From positions 192,001 to 256,000 of the IMG/VR virus record IMGVR_UViG_3300049988_000245: a stretch of DNA of 64,000 nt. One strand, given 5' to 3'. The notes below the pieces were generated by a model. It did not search any database. It had not been told where the DNA came from and worked only from the letters and a program-made list of their open reading frames with translations. This document shows positions 3,813 through 13,277 of this stretch, piece by piece; the stretch's first letter is position 1, and each line of letters opens with the position of its first letter. This DNA is from a virus (lineage: Duplodnaviria; Caudoviricetes). A program made the translations under genes and the position numbers.

Positions 3813-3841
3813 GATGCGATCAACGGCATTTGAGAGGCACC

Positions 3842-6010
3842 ATGAGCGTATTAGTTCAGCCCAGCACCGAGACCACGGCCGAGCGTAAATTCGGTATGGT
3901 TCAGTCGGGCAAGGGATTCCGGATTCTCTCCTCGACCCTTTACTCGGACAAGGCGTTCGCGATGATTCGCGAAATCCTGTCCAACGCGTTCGATGCCCAC
4001 AACGCGATCGACAAGGGCGACATCCCGTTCCACGTGCACCTGCCGTCTAAGACCGAGCCGTTCTGGGCAGTTCGAGATTTCGGTCCCGGCCTGTCTGATG
4101 AGGATATGGGTCGTATCTACACGGTCTATTTCGAATCCACTAAGGCCCGCCATTCGAAGAAGTTCGCCGGGCAGCTAGGTCTCGGCACCAAAGCGCCGCT
4201 CGCCTTCACCGAGTCGTTCGTCGTCGTCTCGTTCCACAACGGCAAGAAGCGCACCTACACGATCTTCTTCGACTCCGACGACAATCCGACCCTGTCGCCG
4301 CCCCTGGTCACCCAGACCGACGAGCCCAACGGAATCGAGGTGATCGTCAAGGTCGCCCCTGAGGACTTCAAAGAAGTCATCGACAAAACCAGCAAGGCAC
4401 TGTCCTACTACGATCCCATGCCGATCATCACGAACGCCCCCGCCAATTTCCGTCCGGGTCCACCCGATGCAGTGTTCCAGGGCGAGGACTTCGCTCTGAC
4501 CATGCGCGGGCGCGGCTCTCTATACGGATACACGTCCAATCCGGCACGCGCCGTAATGGGCCGAGTGATCTACCCGATCAAGGCCGATATGGTGCCGGGG
4601 CTGACCGAGACCCAGCAGATGCTGCTGGACCAGCCCTTCGACATCCGCTTCCCCATGGGGACGCTCGATTTCGTGCCGAGCCGTGAGGAACTGTCCTACG
4701 ACCGCAACATCACCATTCCGGGAATCAAGAAGGCCGTCGCCAAGCTGGAGCGCGATATCATCGAGGCTCTCACGGTCAAGCTTGCCCCGGCAGAGACCGA
4801 AATGAAGGCCCGTCAGGTGTTTGCCTCGCTCGACGAGAAGGTCCGCACCATCGCGCATAAGCTCGGAGGCGTCCCCTGGAACGGTCTGAATATCGCTGAG
4901 ACGTTCTTCCCCATCAAGGTGCCGAAGGGCGTCACCATCACCTCGTACGAGGCTCGCTCGCGCGGCGTTTCCCGCGATACGAAACAGGCTGGGATGGTCG
5001 CTTGCATCCCCCTGACCAACACCTTCGTATTCGACAACGATCGGGAGAAGTCCAGCGTCCACGGGATGCACGCGTATTGCCGGGACACGCTCGACCGCTA
5101 CAGTGACCGCAAGGGTCCGTACTTCCTGCTGGAGGGAGACGCAAAGAGCCGCGCCGCAATCCTAAAGCGGATCGAGGGGGTCGATACGGGGCCGACCAGC
5201 AAATTCATCCACGAAGTGGCCCGACGCTCCGTATCGGCGAAGAAGGTCTACAACGGCAAGCTCGATAAGGATCACATGCGTGACACGTATGTGAATATGG
5301 AGTTGGGCGGTTTCTACGTGCTGATCGTGAACAACGAACTGTCTCCGGCGGCCCGCTACAACAAGGATCAGTGGGAGAGCGCGCACCGTGCGGCGGTCCA
5401 AGCCAAGCTGTTCGATCGCAATGATCAGGTCGTCGCGGTTCCAGCGTCCCTGTCCAAGCAGTTCGTGAACCATCCGAAGTGGAAGGACTTTTACTTCGGG
5501 ATGCGAGAGCGTGCGATCGAGCGGATCAATGAGACCAAGCCGGAGCAGGGCATCGCAAATTTCAATGCCCTCAGTGCGGTGAAATTCAGTGACCGCGACG
5601 ACTACCGGAACGATGCGACCCGAGTGATCGAAGGGCTTGCCAACGTGCTGGGCAAGGATCACCCGTTCGCGAAGTTCCACAAAAAGATCGTCGCCACCCG
5701 TGACTCCGCCTACGGTGCTGTCCACGATGCGAAGTTGCTGTCCCATCAGTTCGGGATCGACCTGACCCTGCCGAAGCCTAACTACGACTTCGCCGGGGTC
5801 TGGAGCGGCCTGATCAAGCAGTACCCAATGGTCACCGTGCTGCTCGATCTCGGCATCAACATGTACGATGATGATCTGGTCGAAAAGGTCATGGCCAAGG
5901 TCCGGGAATACGTGGAACTCGTCGATGGAAAGAAGGTCGTCGTCCTCTCGCCGCCGATCGCGACCAAGCGGGCCGATCGGATCGACAAGCGCCGGGCGTC
6001 CGGTCGCTAA
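3842..6010 (+). CDS. rIIA: rIIA-like protector protein (GHKL ATPase N-terminus)
   Basis: 722 aa; LYSDK..MIREILSNAFDAH, VRDFGPGLS, ESTK, GQLGLGTK motifs; PSREELSY; GAGG RBS before ATG 3842. Confidence 0.88.
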   Translation: MSVLVQPSTETTAERKFGMVQSGKGFRILSSTLYSDKAFAMIREILSNAFDAHNAIDKGDIPFHVHLPSKTEPFWAVRDFGPGLSDEDMGRIYTVYFESTKARHSKKFAGQLGLGTKAPLAFTESFVVVSFHNGKKRTYTIFFDSDDNPTLSPPLVTQTDEPNGIEVIVKVAPEDFKEVIDKTSKALSYYDPMPIITNAPANFRPGPPDAVFQGEDFALTMRGRGSLYGYTSNPARAVMGRVIYPIKADMVPGLTETQQMLLDQPFDIRFPMGTLDFVPSREELSYDRNITIPGIKKAVAKLERDIIEALTVKLAPAETEMKARQVFASLDEKVRTIAHKLGGVPWNGLNIAETFFPIKVPKGVTITSYEARSRGVSRDTKQAGMVACIPLTNTFVFDNDREKSSVHGMHAYCRDTLDRYSDRKGPYFLLEGDAKSRAAILKRIEGVDTGPTSKFIHEVARRSVSAKKVYNGKLDKDHMRDTYVNMELGGFYVLIVNNELSPAARYNKDQWESAHRAAVQAKLFDRNDQVVAVPASLSKQFVNHPKWKDFYFGMRERAIERINETKPEQGIANFNALSAVKFSDRDDYRNDATRVIEGLANVLGKDHPFAKFHKKIVATRDSAYGAVHDAKLLSHQFGIDLTLPKPNYDFAGVWSGLIKQYPMVTVLLDLGINMYDDDLVEKVMAKVREYVELVDGKKVVVLSPPIATKRADRIDKRRASGR

Positions 6011-8104: not shown

Positions 8105-8343
8105 CAGACCCACCGGAGCTTGAACATGAAAGCGTCCTGCCGATTGGTCAGATAGACGCGATCAAGCTTGAAATCCCAGCGTTCTTCAAAGTTGGTCACG
8201 AGCCAGTGCATGACCTTGTCGCATTGTTCTACAGTCAGGTACTCCGGACCAGGGTAGTAGAATTGATATGGGAAATCCTCCACCATGAAGTCGTTCATGT
8301 GTGTGCTTAGATCAGCGACGATGAAGCGGACCCCGTCACTCAC
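8104..8343 (-). CDS. small protein, 'FKLRW' paralogue family
   Basis: MHWLVTNFE...VYLTNRQDAFMFKLRWV; GTGA overlap with cca stop. Confidence 0.8.
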   Translation of the reverse strand: MSDGVRFIVADLSTHMNDFMVEDFPYQFYYPGPEYLTVEQCDKVMHWLVTNFEERWDFKLDRVYLTNRQDAFMFKLRWV

Positions 8344-9509
8344 GCGACGGGGGCCTTCTCCAACAACTCCTCACGCGTCATCGTGTAGTCGGAATCCGCC
8401 CACAGATTACGCAGCAGTCCGACCATCTGGCCGACCATCGGCCCCGGCTTGTGACCGGCATCCAGCAGGTCTTGGCCCTTTACGGGGCACTCGGGAATCT
8501 CCCACGCCAACACGTCTCCGTACAGGTACGTGCGGTGCTGCAACAAGGCGAGTTGTGCAACCCAATGACGATCGATCCGATCGAAGGCGAGGTACCTCTT
8601 CAGGTCGGTCATGTCGCGGTATCCCGTGGAGAAATCCACACTGTGTAGATTGTCTGCCAGCCACGCCGCCCGCTTTGCCTCGGCCGTGGAGAACCGCCAC
8701 AGTGTGGACAGCGCACGCACCTGCTCGGGATCGACCGTGAACGCCACCATGATGGCGACCGGGTCCTTCACCACGCCCTCCAGGGCCACCACGTCGCGCC
8801 AGGAGCCGTGTGAGAGCCCGATGTGATGGGCGACGCCCATCCGCATCATCTCGCGCAGCATGTAGCCTCCTGAGGCGCCGACGACGATCTTCGACATCTC
8901 CGACCAGACGCGTTCCTTGGAGATTTTCTTCAGCCCGTGGGCGTTCAGAACCACCGCGTCCACCGTCTCGTCGTCGATCGACATGACGTTGCCGAACCGA
9001 GCCAGGAAACGGAACCACCTCAGGATGCGCAAATAGTCCTCACGCATACGCGCACCCGCATCACCGACGAAGCGAACCACGCCGTTTTCCAGATCGGCCT
9101 TGCCCTCGAAAGGGTCGAACAGGTTGCCGTCGAAATCCATCATCATCGAGTTGATGGTCAGATCGCGACGCATCTGATCGAGTTCCCAATCCCCATGGTA
9201 GGAGACCACGGCGTGGCGCCCATCATGGTCGGTCTCGGTCCGCAGCGACGTAATCTCGAACGGCTCGCCCCCGAGGACCACCGTGATCGTACCGTGCTGG
9301 AGACCCGTGGTGACATAGCGGAAATGATTCTCCGCATAGACCGCCATCTGCTGGTCCGGGGTCGCATCCGTACACAGGTCGATGTCTTTCGGCGTCTGCC
9401 CGCGTAGGGTGTCGCGAACGCACCCACCAACGAGGCGGATGTCGAAGCCAGCCGCCTGAAAGGCAGCGCGGAGAGACAGCAATGCGGGGGTCAAATAAGA
9501 AGGTGCCAT
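8340..9509 (-). CDS. cca: class II tRNA nucleotidyltransferase (CCA-adding enzyme), no HD domain
   Basis: 389 aa; RLVGGCVRD, KDIDLCT, RRDLTINSM, REDYLRILRWFRF, ISKERVWSEM motifs. Confidence 0.93.
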   Translation of the reverse strand: MAPSYLTPALLSLRAAFQAAGFDIRLVGGCVRDTLRGQTPKDIDLCTDATPDQQMAVYAENHFRYVTTGLQHGTITVVLGGEPFEITSLRTETDHDGRHAVVSYHGDWELDQMRRDLTINSMMMDFDGNLFDPFEGKADLENGVVRFVGDAGARMREDYLRILRWFRFLARFGNVMSIDDETVDAVVLNAHGLKKISKERVWSEMSKIVVGASGGYMLREMMRMGVAHHIGLSHGSWRDVVALEGVVKDPVAIMVAFTVDPEQVRALSTLWRFSTAEAKRAAWLADNLHSVDFSTGYRDMTDLKRYLAFDRIDRHWVAQLALLQHRTYLYGDVLAWEIPECPVKGQDLLDAGHKPGPMVGQMVGLLRNLWADSDYTMTREELLEKAPVA

Positions 9510-9552: not shown

Positions 9553-10776
9553 TTAGAGTCGCAGGAGGTTTGCCACAACATCTGAGATATCGCGGCCTAC
9601 GCGTTGGAACTCAACCGGATTTCCATATTCATCGAACACCGCATGGTCGATCCAGTCGCAAAGCTGATCGCCAATCTGTATCTGGATGCGGCTGGATGGT
9701 TGGGCTACGCTGAGCGCTTCCGTGTTGTTGATGAACACCTCGGATTCGACCGACGTCATGAGGGCGCGAATGTCTCGGTTGAGCAGTTCCGAACGGCACA
9801 TGCTGTAGTGCTTGGCGAAGGATGAGTTCGTGAACGTGATCCGATAGTTCAAATCGAAGCAGCAGATCATGTCCACGCCATTGTCGCGCCGTGCTGCTGC
9901 CTGCTCGGCCGATCGATTCATCTCACTGGTGTCCTTGATCGTCACCAGACGGGCGGGGCGTCCTGCCCAGATGATACGGGTTCCGGTGAAGATCACCGAG
10001 ATGTGGTCGCCGTTGTTGTGCAGCCCCTGGGCGACGAAATGCGTATGGTCGTCGTTCGCCTCGACACGCTCAGCCTCGGAGACATCGAAGAGAATCGCGA
10101 CGGGGCGATTCATAATCTCTTCCGCATCATAGCCGAATAGCCGGGTCACCGCAGGATTCGCAGCAACGATCCGATCGTTCTGCTCGATCAGGATTCCATC
10201 GAACGATGCGTCGAACGCCGACTTGTATCCGCGATTGGCTTTCGAAGATTCCGAAAGGCCGACGATCGGCTCCATATTGCGGATGATCACCAGCATGGAG
10301 GATGACCCGTTGGACCAATCCAGCCGGGTGATCGAGGGTTCGATCCAGAACAAGGCTCCGTTCGGCCGTAGGCCCCTCAGAGGCTTGGGAGAGGTCGGGA
10401 GCCACGCGGAGCTTTCCTCGGCCATCCCCCACAGGGTGGAGGCGTCTGGAACCGCATCCGCACCATGCTGGAACAGATCGCAGACGTTAAGCCCGTTGAT
10501 GTCGGCCCGGCCGAACATCCGTCCTGCTGCGGGATTATACGACTGAACAGTTCCGTCCATCTCGGTCAGGAACAGCGCGTCGTTCATGATCCGCGCGGTA
10601 TGCTCAAACTGACGGATCGAATCATCGAGACGCGCTTTGAGGCAGATCGTTAGGTCTTGTGCCGCGTTGGCAGTCTCGGTAGCCGCCATCAGTAGAGAAT
10701 TTTGACTTACCGACATCAAGGCTTCGAGGTGGTCGTCGCGCTTCTGGCGTGTTTTCCGACTACCCCAACCGAACAT
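9553..10776 (-). CDS. PAS-domain protein (three PAS domains, no output domain)
   Basis: 407 aa; three repeats of D.I...D..G.I...N.A...FGY...E..G..V..L with C-terminal RD/KD motifs; ORF ends right after PAS3. Confidence 0.85.
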   Translation of the reverse strand: MFGWGSRKTRQKRDDHLEALMSVSQNSLLMAATETANAAQDLTICLKARLDDSIRQFEHTARIMNDALFLTEMDGTVQSYNPAAGRMFGRADINGLNVCDLFQHGADAVPDASTLWGMAEESSAWLPTSPKPLRGLRPNGALFWIEPSITRLDWSNGSSSMLVIIRNMEPIVGLSESSKANRGYKSAFDASFDGILIEQNDRIVAANPAVTRLFGYDAEEIMNRPVAILFDVSEAERVEANDDHTHFVAQGLHNNGDHISVIFTGTRIIWAGRPARLVTIKDTSEMNRSAEQAAARRDNGVDMICCFDLNYRITFTNSSFAKHYSMCRSELLNRDIRALMTSVESEVFINNTEALSVAQPSSRIQIQIGDQLCDWIDHAVFDEYGNPVEFQRVGRDISDVVANLLRL

Positions 10777-11021
10777 CAAAATACATCCTTGTACACAGAA
10801 CCGCGTCGAATCTTATTTATCGCACTTGCAGTACAATTGAACCGTTTACAAATTGTAGATGCAGCTTCTAGACTTGCGCGAATCTCACGAACTTGGTCGT
10901 CGGTAAGTCGTCGAAGCGTTGGGCGAATGTCGTTTTTGACCAGTGTTTTTAGAAGAACCGAGATACGTATTTCCAGTCTCGATATGAACGATCCGATATA
11001 TTCCAGAGTAATCCAAAACAA
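10776..11021 (-). CDS. small HTH protein resembling the C-terminal DNA-binding module of HNH homing endonucleases
   Basis: RRLTDDQVREIR...ICKRFNCTASAINKIRRG..YK; AT-rich; TGATG coupling to PAS gene; start uncertain. Confidence 0.55.
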   Translation of the reverse strand: MFWITLEYIGSFISRLEIRISVLLKTLVKNDIRPTLRRLTDDQVREIRASLEAASTICKRFNCTASAINKIRRGSVYKDVF

Positions 11022-11114
11022 AAGCCCTGTAAAATCGAGCTAACGATCTTACAGAGCTTTACAAAGTAATTAAATATTTTTATCGTAGTTAGTACTAATC
11101 TCCATTAAAACCAA

Positions 11115-11378
11115 TTACAACTTTGAACGTATCTCAATTAGGACTAATTTCAGCGAAGTCAAAGCTTCGCCGAGCGTCTTATTGCCGGTGTAATAGTCAT
11201 CAACGATGCGCTCGATTTTCTCATCCTTGCGCTCGACTTCCTTGAGGATTCGGCGGCGGTCGAGGATGAGAAGGCCGATGATAAGGCAGAGGATGGCGAT
11301 CATCGCCTGAGGTCCACCACCGAGAAGCGCGCCGATCAACTTTTCAAAAATAGATTCCAAGGTCGGGGCTCCAGCCAA
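11115..11378 (-). CDS. single-TM membrane protein with coiled-coil tail (holin-like candidate)
   Basis: 87 aa; hydrophobic AMIAILCLIIGLLIL then RRR and a heptad pattern; late promoter upstream. Confidence 0.7.
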   Translation of the reverse strand: MAGAPTLESIFEKLIGALLGGGPQAMIAILCLIIGLLILDRRRILKEVERKDEKIERIVDDYYTGNKTLGEALTSLKLVLIEIRSKL

Positions 11379-11394
11379 TATTATGGGACTGGAG

Positions 11395-11401
11395 TATTTA
11401 T
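11395..11401 (-). promoter_or_regulatory. T4-like late promoter core
   Basis: ATAAATA on minus strand upstream of 11378. Confidence 0.6.
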
Positions 11402-11464: not shown

Positions 11465-11836
11465 CTAGAGCCCGGAAGCCCATCGGAACTTGAAGAACAC
11501 TGCCATATCCTCGTCTGCGAAGGAGAATTTCAGCCCCTTCACATCTCGGGTGACACGGACTCCGAGGTCGGTCCATTCGTAGCGCCCGAAGATCGAGTAC
11601 TTTGCCTTGGCGTGTTCTTCGAGCCATTCCCGAATCTCGAACATGACGTCCGAATCTGGAACCTTGATGAGAACGCTGTGCTGGCAGAGATCGGGTCCAA
11701 CTATGTGCGAGACGAGCGCGGCCAGCGCTGGAAACGTCTCCCCGCCCTTCTTCTTCGTGTGAACAGTACCGTTCATCAGGTGGGACCATCGAAGTTTTAT
11801 GTCCGAGATTCCACCATGCGCAACTGCTGCGGCCAT
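11465..11836 (-). CDS. 'FKLRW' paralogue family protein with N-terminal extension
   Basis: ATG 11836 with AAGGA RBS; REWLEEHAK...FSFADEDMAVFFKFRWASGL. Confidence 0.7.
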   Translation of the reverse strand: MAAAVAHGGISDIKLRWSHLMNGTVHTKKKGGETFPALAALVSHIVGPDLCQHSVLIKVPDSDVMFEIREWLEEHAKAKYSIFGRYEWTDLGVRVTRDVKGLKFSFADEDMAVFFKFRWASGL

Positions 11837-11971
11837 CGTTCCTTTCCCGGTGTGCCCCCACACGTCCAAAAGATTTTGGAGCCGCAATTTTAGGTCAACC
11901 GAAAGGAAAATGCCACCCGTAAAAATACGGATTGCGCACCAAAATAGGACATTCTGGTGGGACCGTATAGT

Positions 11972-12691
11972 TTAGATACGAACCACGAGTGCTGAATCAC
12001 TGTCGGTGTGCTGCACAACGTACGCACGATCCATCATGTTTACGCTCCAACCTTGACCGAGTAGCACAGCAATGTTTTGGCCAGCAGCAATGTCGTCCAT
12101 GGACATCGAAATAGCTGCTTCGTTTAGACCTTGCTGAGACATTAATTCGTTTAATTCGCCGAAGCCAACGAACTCGAATTTATGCACTTCGTGACCACCA
12201 CCCAGGGTTAGTACGCCTCGGCTAAGAGACGCAGAAGTGAGATCGCTTGGGTATAGGAAGGTAAGAACTGCCTCTGAGAGGTTGTCCTCCTCGGGGTCGA
12301 TCACTGCTTTACGAACTTCTTCCTCTGAGAACGGAACCAGATCATCATGGCCACGCAGATGCATTTTCCAGTTATCGATGTTCGCCAGCGGAGCGACTTC
12401 TTCTAATAGAGCGGTCACATTTTCTGGGAGCATGTTGTTCTTGAGAAGTTCGATGAACACCATGTAGTAGCCCTGCGCGTCCGGAGCGGGAGAAATCTCC
12501 GTATCGATCAATTCCACGGCGGAGCGTTGAAGGAATCGATTCAGGTCTTCGGCCGCGCCATGTTCGGCGACGTAGAAGGCGATGACGATCGCCTCGTCAT
12601 CAATTTTTGATTCGTACTCGTCCACGGAAATCAATGGAAGAATCAGGTCTTCGAGGTCGCCCCCTCGCATGCCTTCGTACAGATTAGCCAT
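11972..12691 (-). CDS. conserved jumbo-phage hypothetical protein
   Basis: ATG 12691 with GGAGG RBS; DLEDLILPLISVDEYESKI..AIVIAFYV...DLNRFL motif recalled from Rak2-like phages. Confidence 0.75.
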   Translation of the reverse strand: MANLYEGMRGGDLEDLILPLISVDEYESKIDDEAIVIAFYVAEHGAAEDLNRFLQRSAVELIDTEISPAPDAQGYYMVFIELLKNNMLPENVTALLEEVAPLANIDNWKMHLRGHDDLVPFSEEEVRKAVIDPEEDNLSEAVLTFLYPSDLTSASLSRGVLTLGGGHEVHKFEFVGFGELNELMSQQGLNEAAISMSMDDIAAGQNIAVLLGQGWSVNMMDRAYVVQHTDSDSALVVRI

Positions 12692-13277
12692 TCGGAACAC
12701 CTCCCTTAGCCGGAGGCGCGGCCGGTGCCGCTGGAGGGGTGGCCATCGGGTCCCCGCCTGGAGGCTGGTCCATCGGATCGCCGCCCGGATTATTAGGATC
12801 GCCCTGGCTTTCTTCATCGTAGCCAGACTCGTCGTTCATGCCGCCGTCCTGAGCGTCCTGAACGTCTTCCACGTCCACTTCTTCGTCGTAAAAGTCCAAC
12901 TGACCGGCATTGAGTTCAGAAATCAGACGGCGAGGAATCGAGATTCGAACGAGCCAGACCTTCTTGCCCTCTGCATCTACCTCGGCCTCGTCCAAATCTT
13001 TTGTCTCGCCCTTGGGGTCCTCGTGGGCCTTGGAAAAATCCACGCGAACGCCGTGCTTGAGCAAGCGAAGTCCTGCGCGGGGGTCGGGCATCTTCTTGTG
13101 ATCGTACTTGATCGTCATATCGAGCCAATATCGGCGGACCTTAGGTCCCTCGACGATCTCACCGTCAATCCAGTTCTTGAACACGTATACGTCGAGTGAA
13201 TCTAGAACATCTTCCATCTGAATAAGAAGATCGAGCAGATGTGGAGAATCTTCAAGTTTTTCGATATCAGCAGGCAT
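12684..13277 (-). CDS. conserved jumbo-phage hypothetical protein with acidic/Pro-rich tail
   Basis: 197 aa; LDSLDVYVFKNWIDGEIVEGP..RYW...MPDPRAGLRL; late promoter upstream. Confidence 0.78.
   Translation of the reverse strand: MPADIEKLEDSPHLLDLLIQMEDVLDSLDVYVFKNWIDGEIVEGPKVRRYWLDMTIKYDHKKMPDPRAGLRLLKHGVRVDFSKAHEDPKGETKDLDEAEVDAEGKKVWLVRISIPRRLISELNAGQLDFYDEEVDVEDVQDAQDGGMNDESGYDEESQGDPNNPGGDPMDQPPGGDPMATPPAAPAAPPAKGGVPNG

Follow-up and report, generated by a model that had tools for sequence, protein, structure and literature searches.

What is the role of a sensor protein that carries no output of its own and is encoded in a giant phage beside a very small membrane protein? The question is raised by an uncultured giant phage of the Caudoviricetes (Duplodnaviria), IMG/VR record IMGVR_UViG_3300049988_000245 (265,895 nt, estimated to be 57% complete), of which positions 192,001 to 256,000 were analysed; this stretch of 64,000 nt is called the window hereafter, and positions refer to it unless another locus is named. 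Between 9553 and 11401 the window contains three minus-strand open reading frames (ORFs), at 11115-11378 (87 aa from a TTG), 10776-11021 (81 aa) and 9553-10779 (408 aa). The first-pass annotation, made from the letters alone, had described them as a late promoter followed by an operon for a transmembrane (TM)/coiled-coil protein, a helix-turn-helix (HTH) ORF and a sensor with three PAS domains, and had proposed either a split, membrane-tethered sensor that times lysis or a decoy of host PAS kinases.

Among the intracellular sensors of bacteria none is commoner than the PAS domain, which is almost always fused to an output. The clade of giant phages studied here, by contrast, keeps an output-less PAS array strictly together with an 81-residue membrane protein, in genes that look late and are under strong purifying selection. 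We hold it to be probable that the two genes constitute a conserved late module of Atu_ph07/Phosso-like giant phages, encoding a membrane-tethered, output-less PAS sensor pair. This would imply that the phage senses something in late infection and acts at the membrane, which may concern lysis. PAS domains, bitopic helical proteins and GIY-YIG elements are all known kinds; the combination, in which an output-less PAS array is obligatorily encoded beside an 81-aa membrane protein across a clade of giant phages, was not found described in the papers searched. Literature searches combining jumbo phages with PAS domains gave nothing relevant; the PAS protein is not discussed in the Atu_ph07 genome paper (PMC6102473), in the Sinorhizobium AP-J-162 paper or in a comparative review of jumbo phages.

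The gene pair and its products

The nearest isolated kin of the source phage are Sinorhizobium phage Phosso (469 kb) and Agrobacterium phage Atu_ph07 (490 kb), and megablast of the stretch against isolated phages returned no matches. Records of the clade measure approximately 420-610 kb, and many shorter contig fragments belong to it as well. In every testable locus (~40) the small gene and the PAS gene are adjacent and on the same strand. The 81-aa homologue lies directly before the PAS gene in both Phosso and Atu_ph07, with overlaps of 1 and 4 nt, and there the pair is flanked by divergently oriented, unrelated genes; adjacency was also observed in the metagenomic contigs L003, L005, L007, L008 and L010 (L numbers designate related loci). 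A scan of IMG/VR with the small-protein alignment yielded 25 loci on contigs of up to 608 kb, and wherever DNA was available beyond the small gene (23 loci), the co-oriented gene that follows it matched the PAS profile from the N-terminal helix onward, without exception. The order of a small gene followed by a helix + PAS gene was repeated in seven of seven further IMG/VR loci, and a helix + PAS protein likewise comes next in small-protein subfamilies that are only distantly related (E 1e-9 to 1e-5 against the profile). It should be noted that the locus scans were made with narrow small-protein alignments, broad ones being too diverse.

Spacing was compared in 39 distinct pairs: in 28 of them the genes overlap or leave a gap of at most 15 nt, the overlaps being usually of 1-4 nt, and the ancestral state is a translationally coupled pair. 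The genes flanking it are not conserved among Phosso, Atu_ph07 and the window, and the 266-kb record holds no paralogue of either the small gene or the PAS gene. Linkage of the two genes in relatives, which the first-pass annotation had set as a test of its own proposal, was thus found throughout, in most loci with translational coupling, and by synteny the small protein is a true partner of the PAS protein. As a separate observation, locus L016 (a 517-kb IMG/VR phage) has an insert of 838 nt between the small and PAS genes (L016:3665-4504) with an ORF of ~250 aa on the opposite strand, and insertions may recur in the spacer between the two genes. In subfamilies with long variants, the cytoplasmic helix of the small protein and the N-terminus of the PAS protein were compared for matching changes in length; the pattern was inconsistent and this line was dropped.

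For the small protein, the TTG at 11360 is the most likely start codon, since nearly all relatives are 81 aa long and a GGAG lies 9 nt upstream of this codon. The protein of 87 aa described previously is probably, consequently, six residues too long, while the AlphaFold2 (AF2) model agrees with a single membrane pass and a helical C-terminal portion. A short N-terminal helix is followed by GGGP, one TM helix, DRRR and a helical hairpin with a DDYYxGN turn. In the model (predicted local distance difference test, pLDDT, 88) helices occupy residues 7-20, 23-63 and 69-86; the 41-residue helix crosses the membrane and continues into the cytoplasm, and the final helix folds back after the conserved DDYYxGN turn. 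Exactly one hydrophobic segment was found across the family (167 members), with a mean of 0.62 lysine plus arginine (K+R) residues in the 15 positions before the TM segment vs 4.32 after it, a bias present in 98.8% of members. Under the positive-inside rule, this excess predicts a cytoplasmic location for the C-terminal hairpin.

An exhaustive profile search placed the small-protein family in 172 clusters at 50% identity, almost all of 78-105 aa, and none of the 172 cluster representatives is fused to a PAS domain or to anything else. In comparison with L007 the gene shows a ratio of nonsynonymous to synonymous substitutions (dN/dS) of 0.02, with 98.8% amino-acid identity at a dS of 0.81. No curated family matches the protein. 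Sub-threshold matches were to families with a TM segment and coiled coil, namely BhlA/UviB-type holin-like proteins, Rz-like spanins, DivIC and ATP synthase b; a language-model search had as nearest clusters those named 'Holin' (0.92) and Holin_BhlA (0.89), and fold searches with the model gave non-specific helical matches. The holin-named neighbours and the weak family matches are taken as leads only. BhlA/UviB-type proteins (PF10960, phrog_2429) and Rz-type i-spanins do resemble the small protein in having ~80-90 aa and an N-terminal TM segment before a charged helical or coiled part, yet all matches lie below family thresholds (best PF10960 E 0.0057), and the likeness may be only architectural.

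For the second gene, the relatives of the PAS protein begin with MF(W/G/F) followed by 4-7 Lys/Arg, an aromatic-basic N-terminus seen across the family, and the true start is therefore placed at the ATG at 10776, giving 407 aa. Pfam returned PAS_9 with 86.8 bits (cut-off 27; E 1.4e-24), PAS_8 with 48, PAS_4 with 46.2 and PAS with 45.1 bits, and no other Pfam model matched above threshold, among them none for a kinase, GGDEF or DNA-binding domain. In the AF2 model, built from 22 family members (mean pLDDT 82.5; PAS units mostly 83-92), the PAS fold of a five-stranded antiparallel sheet with flanking helices occurs three times, joined by helices, and the chain ends 11 residues past the third. 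Foldseek aligned the model with DosP and PpsR over ~370-385 columns (E 1e-15 to 1e-16), and its probability was 1.00 for DosP, PpsR, FixL and LOV-PAS. The family profile, when compared with solved structures, matched MmoS best (E 1.7e-9, profile positions 70-243), then DosP and FixL. Pfam, AF2 and Foldseek thus agree and confirm the first reading of a long N-terminal helix and three PAS domains with no output.

The PAS protein has 31 close family members, and its Phosso homologue is 25% identical. The number of PAS domains varies from one to four in relatives, with lengths of ~176-190 aa (one), ~285-310 aa (two), ~400 aa (three) and ~540-560 aa (four); the N-terminal helix and first PAS are always kept, and PAS3 is absent from the one- and two-PAS versions. 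The Atu_ph07 homologue differs from the window protein only by one extra PAS-sized segment. The most conserved regions are the N-terminal helix, with invariant S24, Q25, L28, A31, A32, A36, A39, T43, L50 and T60, and the last strands of PAS3, with invariant polar residues R363, Q365, W375, D377, H378, E389, Q391, R392 and R395. A search with the N-terminal helix alone, which is of limited sensitivity, recovered family members and no other domain context. The dN/dS of the PAS gene against L007 is 0.058, the dS of the pair genes being about 0.8-0.9. Atu_ph07 gp049 bears the label of a sensor histidine kinase; neither HisKA/DHp nor HATPase_c occurs in the window protein or among the precomputed domains of the 31 family members, which shows that this automatic label of gp49 is wrong.

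The frame between the genes and the expression signals

The 'HTH ORF' of the first-pass annotation exists as a frame of 81 codons with an HTH-like C-terminus, but it is not a gene of the module. The frame at 10776-11021 reads through a deletion junction and weakly matches a phrog_6156 endonuclease in its C-terminal third (positions 158-230 of 261, E 0.002). Read in a second frame, the DNA of 10885-11016 gives MDYSGIYRIVHIETGNTYLGSSKN, a GIY-YIG motif. In L007, whose PAS protein is 92% identical to that of the window, an intact 256-aa GIY-YIG + NUMOD3 gene occupies the same site between the small and PAS genes. Alignment with it revealed that 530 internal nt are missing from the window copy, with the junction at 10945/10946; because of this deletion the two retained ends, the initial ~24 codons (MDYSGIYRIVHIETGNTYLGSSKN) and the final ~50 with the HTH DNA-binding end, run directly into each other but lie in different frames. 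Moreover, the start codon is mutated from ATG to TTG relative to the intact enzyme, and a complete in-frame GIY-YIG catalytic domain is absent from the remnant, which has no Pfam match.

Metagenome contigs carry intact or alternative alleles, which indicates that the deletion is recent and polymorphic. Near-identical phage contigs from silage run X4 diverge exactly at 10945/10946, and their new sequence encodes VHQRINSHRY as in the L007 enzyme. In run X1, the probable source sample, a second allele has 620 other letters replacing 165, and contig depths were ~30 for the remnant form and ~15 for the 620-letter form (window positions 10898-11146). A recent deletion also fits the low dN/dS of the retained HTH codons (0.09 at dS ~1). 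Judging from these alignments, the frame is a recently deleted homing endonuclease, neither an independent gene nor a regulator of the module. The copy resembles T4-like GIY-YIG homing endonucleases (I-TevI/Seg type; PF01541 + NUMOD3) in its GIY-YIG motif, its retained C-terminal HTH and its insertion between two conserved genes; it differs in lacking 530 nt that include the linker and the remaining catalytic domain, in its split frames and in the ATG>TTG change, and it encodes no enzyme. Presence/deletion polymorphism of a homing endonuclease is thereby documented in natural populations, and the remnant is an example of selfish-element debris that is easily mistaken for a regulator on first reading.

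The motif ATAAATA is the core of the T4 late promoter. It was counted 8 times in the window vs 2.2 expected, and (A/C)TAAATA is found 30-45 nt upstream of the small gene both in the window and in seven related loci (Phosso, Atu_ph07, L003, L005, L007, L008 and L010); a relaxed (A/C/T)TAAATA precedes many other gene starts of the window. The ATAAATA motifs are putative promoters. The late promoter that had been proposed for the region accordingly has a candidate that is kept in relatives, whereas the single operon behind it does not hold: the small gene is closed by a terminator-like hairpin, and an ATAAATA of its own precedes the PAS gene, which argues for two late-type units. Hairpins with T-runs are found at the equivalent place in L003, L007, L008 and L020. 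In L003, L008 and L020 an ATAAATA lies in the short spacer between terminator and PAS gene; in the window and L007 it falls inside the 3' end of the endonuclease gene. Since the terminator and separate promoters occur in the window subclade, strict co-translation is not required. It should be added that Atu_ph07 has a gp55-like sigma factor (PMC6102473) and that its homologue of the small protein, gp48, is documented at the protein level by mass spectrometry.

Possible function and competing explanations

The mechanism that we consider probable is built on the layout of the two proteins. The first gene would provide an 81-aa inner-membrane protein with its N-terminus out, one TM helix and a hairpin in the cytoplasm, and the second a soluble protein in which three PAS domains, with nothing beyond them, follow a basic-aromatic N-terminus and a 60-residue helix. 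The hairpin may dock with the N-terminal helix, which would hold the PAS array, probably dimeric, at the inner membrane face late in infection. There the PAS domains could read a cytoplasmic or membrane-proximal cue, be it a ligand, a redox state or a protein. Because the PAS protein lacks an enzymatic or DNA-binding output, the signal would be relayed by protein-protein contact, and the most likely target would be the small membrane protein itself, with its holin-like layout. The membrane tether put forward in the first-pass annotation is compatible with the predicted topology (cytoplasmic hairpin, K+R 0.6 vs 4.3) and with the conserved aromatic-basic N-terminus and long helix.

As to what such a pair might control, a sensor-gated lysis-timing device is our leading specific guess, to which we would give a modest chance. 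It leads because the small protein has a holin-like layout, no recognisable holin was found in complete relatives and the lysis system of Atu_ph07 is reported as unknown (PMC6102473). Phage_holin_T (PF11031) had no match in the source genome, Phosso, Atu_ph07 or two IMG/VR genomes rated 100% complete, and PF10960 had none at E<=1 in the source genome, 2 of 55 small-protein family members reaching E 0.0057-0.05. In its explicit form, with the small protein as the holin or holin regulator of Atu_ph07-like phages and the PAS array as an antiholin-like gate in the cytoplasm that responds to the energy, redox or metabolite state of the dying cell, the proposal is unlikely. The small protein does have features of the holin class (small, late-type, at least one TM helix, charged cytoplasmic end), which are shared with many non-holins. 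If the lysis clock were true, these phages would decide the time of lysis by a PAS sensor with neither a kinase nor a transcription factor.

Several points weigh against this mechanism. The window subclade has a terminator and separate promoter-like motifs between the two genes. No cofactor or ligand motif was established in the PAS protein: the likeness to MmoS, an FAD-PAS protein, is general, consisting of the profile similarity given above and a shared xLWxxxxxxxxW pattern in the F-alpha region. For the holin step in particular, the small protein has no significant match to any holin family, and its cytoplasmic part shows much stronger conservation than holin tails usually do. A candidate endolysin of 139 aa (genome positions 68268-68687, plus strand), labelled M15/VanY-like from a sequence motif, lies ~135 kb from the pair, with no TM ORF beside it. 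Linkage of holin and endolysin is not obligatory and is absent in T4. Finally, the presence of Atu_ph07 gp48, the homologue of the small protein, in a virion preparation could speak for a structural role instead.

That structural role deserves to be spelled out. The small protein would be a virion-associated or membrane-bound assembly factor, and the PAS protein a chaperone or assembly regulator; we regard this as improbable. The gp48 protein (9.11 kDa) was detected in the phage preparation by electrospray ionisation tandem mass spectrometry with 3 peptides and 37% coverage (PMC6102473 Table S5), and its gene lies inside the virion-protein cluster of coding sequences 31-76 (PMC6102473). The sample was, however, purified with polyethylene glycol only and also held ribonucleotide reductase, a RecA-like protein, SSB and terminase (PMC6102473), so that gp48 could be a contaminant, namely an abundant late membrane protein; gp49, the PAS protein, is not listed among the proteins of the same preparation. 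Genomic context is divided in a similar manner: in the window and 18 related loci the pair comes directly after the phrog_13138 structural gene and its neighbours, whereas in Phosso and Atu_ph07 it stands apart as a divergent unit, more than 190 kb from the structural-protein homologue. The PAS domains of the protein are, furthermore, of canonical sensor type.

The decoy of host signalling suggested in the first-pass annotation is now disfavoured and appears quite improbable. In the form considered here, the PAS protein would heterodimerise with PAS domains of a host sensor kinase, for example of the DivL/CckA/PleC class, and block or rewire it, the small protein only localising the PAS protein. 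Alphaproteobacteria do have proteins made of PAS domains alone that influence kinases in trans. Dimerisation is common among PAS domains, the phage protein lacks any output, and the conserved polar patch of PAS3 could, from its strand periodicity, be a protein interface. Yet the closest non-family protein, a histidine kinase and the best cellular-type match bearing a kinase domain, is only 24% identical (E 5.5e-4), and the nearest solved PAS structures are MmoS, DosP and FixL, with no DivL, CckA or PleC chain among 24 matches. The family is, moreover, phage-specific and ancient within phages, as the divergence of Phosso indicates; its members have from one to four PAS domains, and it is always tied to the membrane protein. 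A host is recorded for two members only, the rest coming from diverse metagenomes with widely different G+C (that of Atu_ph07 is 37.1%; PMC6102473), and one particular host kinase is consequently not the target to be expected. Very improbable, in our judgement, is that the two genes are mere neighbours with independent functions, such as a plain holin and an unrelated cytoplasmic sensor. The terminator and separate promoters in the window subclade would agree with it, as would the tolerated insertions between the genes (the endonuclease in the window and L007, 838 nt in L016); against it stand adjacency and co-orientation in all of the ~40 testable loci, down to ~25-35% identity, stop and start codons that overlap in most loci, and flanking genes that differ among Phosso, Atu_ph07 and the window.

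The membrane-tethered sensor pair that we favour can be compared with several known systems. The tandem-PAS proteins PpsR, DosP, NifL and MmoS (4hh2, 9bgv, 9qq6, 3ewk) likewise join several canonical PAS domains by helical linkers, and NifL and PpsR signal by protein-protein contact, as is proposed here. Each of the four, however, has an output or effector (HTH, EAL/GGDEF or kinase-like), whereas the phage protein has none, possesses a family-specific N-terminal helix of 60 residues and is always encoded with a small membrane protein. In T4 lysis inhibition, the holin T is controlled by the antiholins RI and RIII. A late small membrane protein set by a separate soluble partner would be common to both systems as an analogy only, for there is no homology, T is oriented the other way in the membrane and carries a large domain in the periplasm, and the T4 antiholins are devoid of PAS domains.

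VqmA-Phage of vibriophage VP882 reportedly feeds a host-derived signal into the lysis decision. This quorum-sensing receptor (PAS + HTH; PMC8284805) is a phage-encoded PAS sensor too, and the best known of them, likened here by description and not by sequence. It is a DNA-binding transcription factor of a temperate phage, while the PAS protein of the window has no DNA-binding domain, the giant-phage PAS genes look late and their membrane partner is obligatory; Atu_ph07 is reported to be lytic (PMC6102473). Two cultured representatives, Atu_ph07 with gp48/gp49 and Phosso with its pair, make the proposal directly testable.

Neighbouring genes and features of the window

The G+C content of the window is 49-62% (2-kb windows), and the stretch is present in leaf and silage metagenomes. 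Features of the locus and its surroundings are collected in Table 1.

Table 1. Positions of the paired genes, their domains, expression signals and adjacent genes in the window
Feature	Positions	Strand	Evidence or remark
CCA-adding tRNA nucleotidyltransferase gene	8340-9509	-	PolyA_pol head domain E 3.5e-31; phrog_2244 E 8e-61
407-aa PAS-only protein gene	9553-10776	-	PAS_9, PAS_8, PAS_4 and PAS matches; AF2; Foldseek
PAS3, residues 303-396	9589-9870	-	AF2; invariant polar cluster
PAS2, residues 194-282	9931-10197	-	AF2; best Pfam stretch 194-286
PAS1, residues 67-167	10276-10578	-	AF2 and family profile
N-terminal long helix, residues 6-65	10582-10761	-	AF2; preceded by conserved MF(W/G) and Lys/Arg-rich N-terminus
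GIY-YIG homing endonuclease remnant	10776-11016	-	phrog_6156 match; intact L007 copy; deletion alignment; metagenome contigs
Second ATAAATA	10814-10820	-	Inside endonuclease remnant, 38 nt before PAS start; conserved in L007
Terminator-like hairpin	11021-11060	-	17 pairs, then TGTTTTGG; after small gene
81-aa bitopic membrane protein gene (predicted start)	11115-11360	-	Alternative TTG start at 11378 gives 87 aa
T4-type late-promoter-like motif ATAAATA	11395-11401	-	35 nt before likely small-gene start
140-aa gene upstream of pair	11465-11887	-	
281-aa virion structural protein family gene upstream of pair	11972-12817	-	phrog_13138, E 1.9e-43
197-aa gene upstream of pair	12684-13277	-	

The CCA-adding tRNA nucleotidyltransferase gene lies directly downstream of the PAS gene and occupies the same place in L003, L007, L008 and L012. 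On the other side, the genes of 140, 281 and 197 aa are kept ahead of the pair in 10-18 related loci, as parts of a larger syntenic block of one subclade.

Further downstream of the pair, a protein of 726 aa (3830-6010, plus strand) has a weak GHKL ATPase match, and its counterpart in L005 and L010 adjoins a gene matching Phage_T4_rIIB; from these matches, the protein is probably rIIA-like. An rIIA/rIIB linkage was considered as a functional clue, being seen in L005 and L010 and loosely in the window, and was dropped because it is absent in Phosso and Atu_ph07.

In L007, an ART-PolyVal (ADP-ribosyltransferase-like) gene was observed a few genes downstream of the pair (L007:10168-11040), within a block of small genes that the window shares with L007 only. 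In Atu_ph07, a neighbour of the pair annotated as a hypothetical protein in the record, gp053 (778 aa; L002:7058-9394), contains a Zeta-toxin/AAA_33 kinase-like domain (E 1.5e-14).

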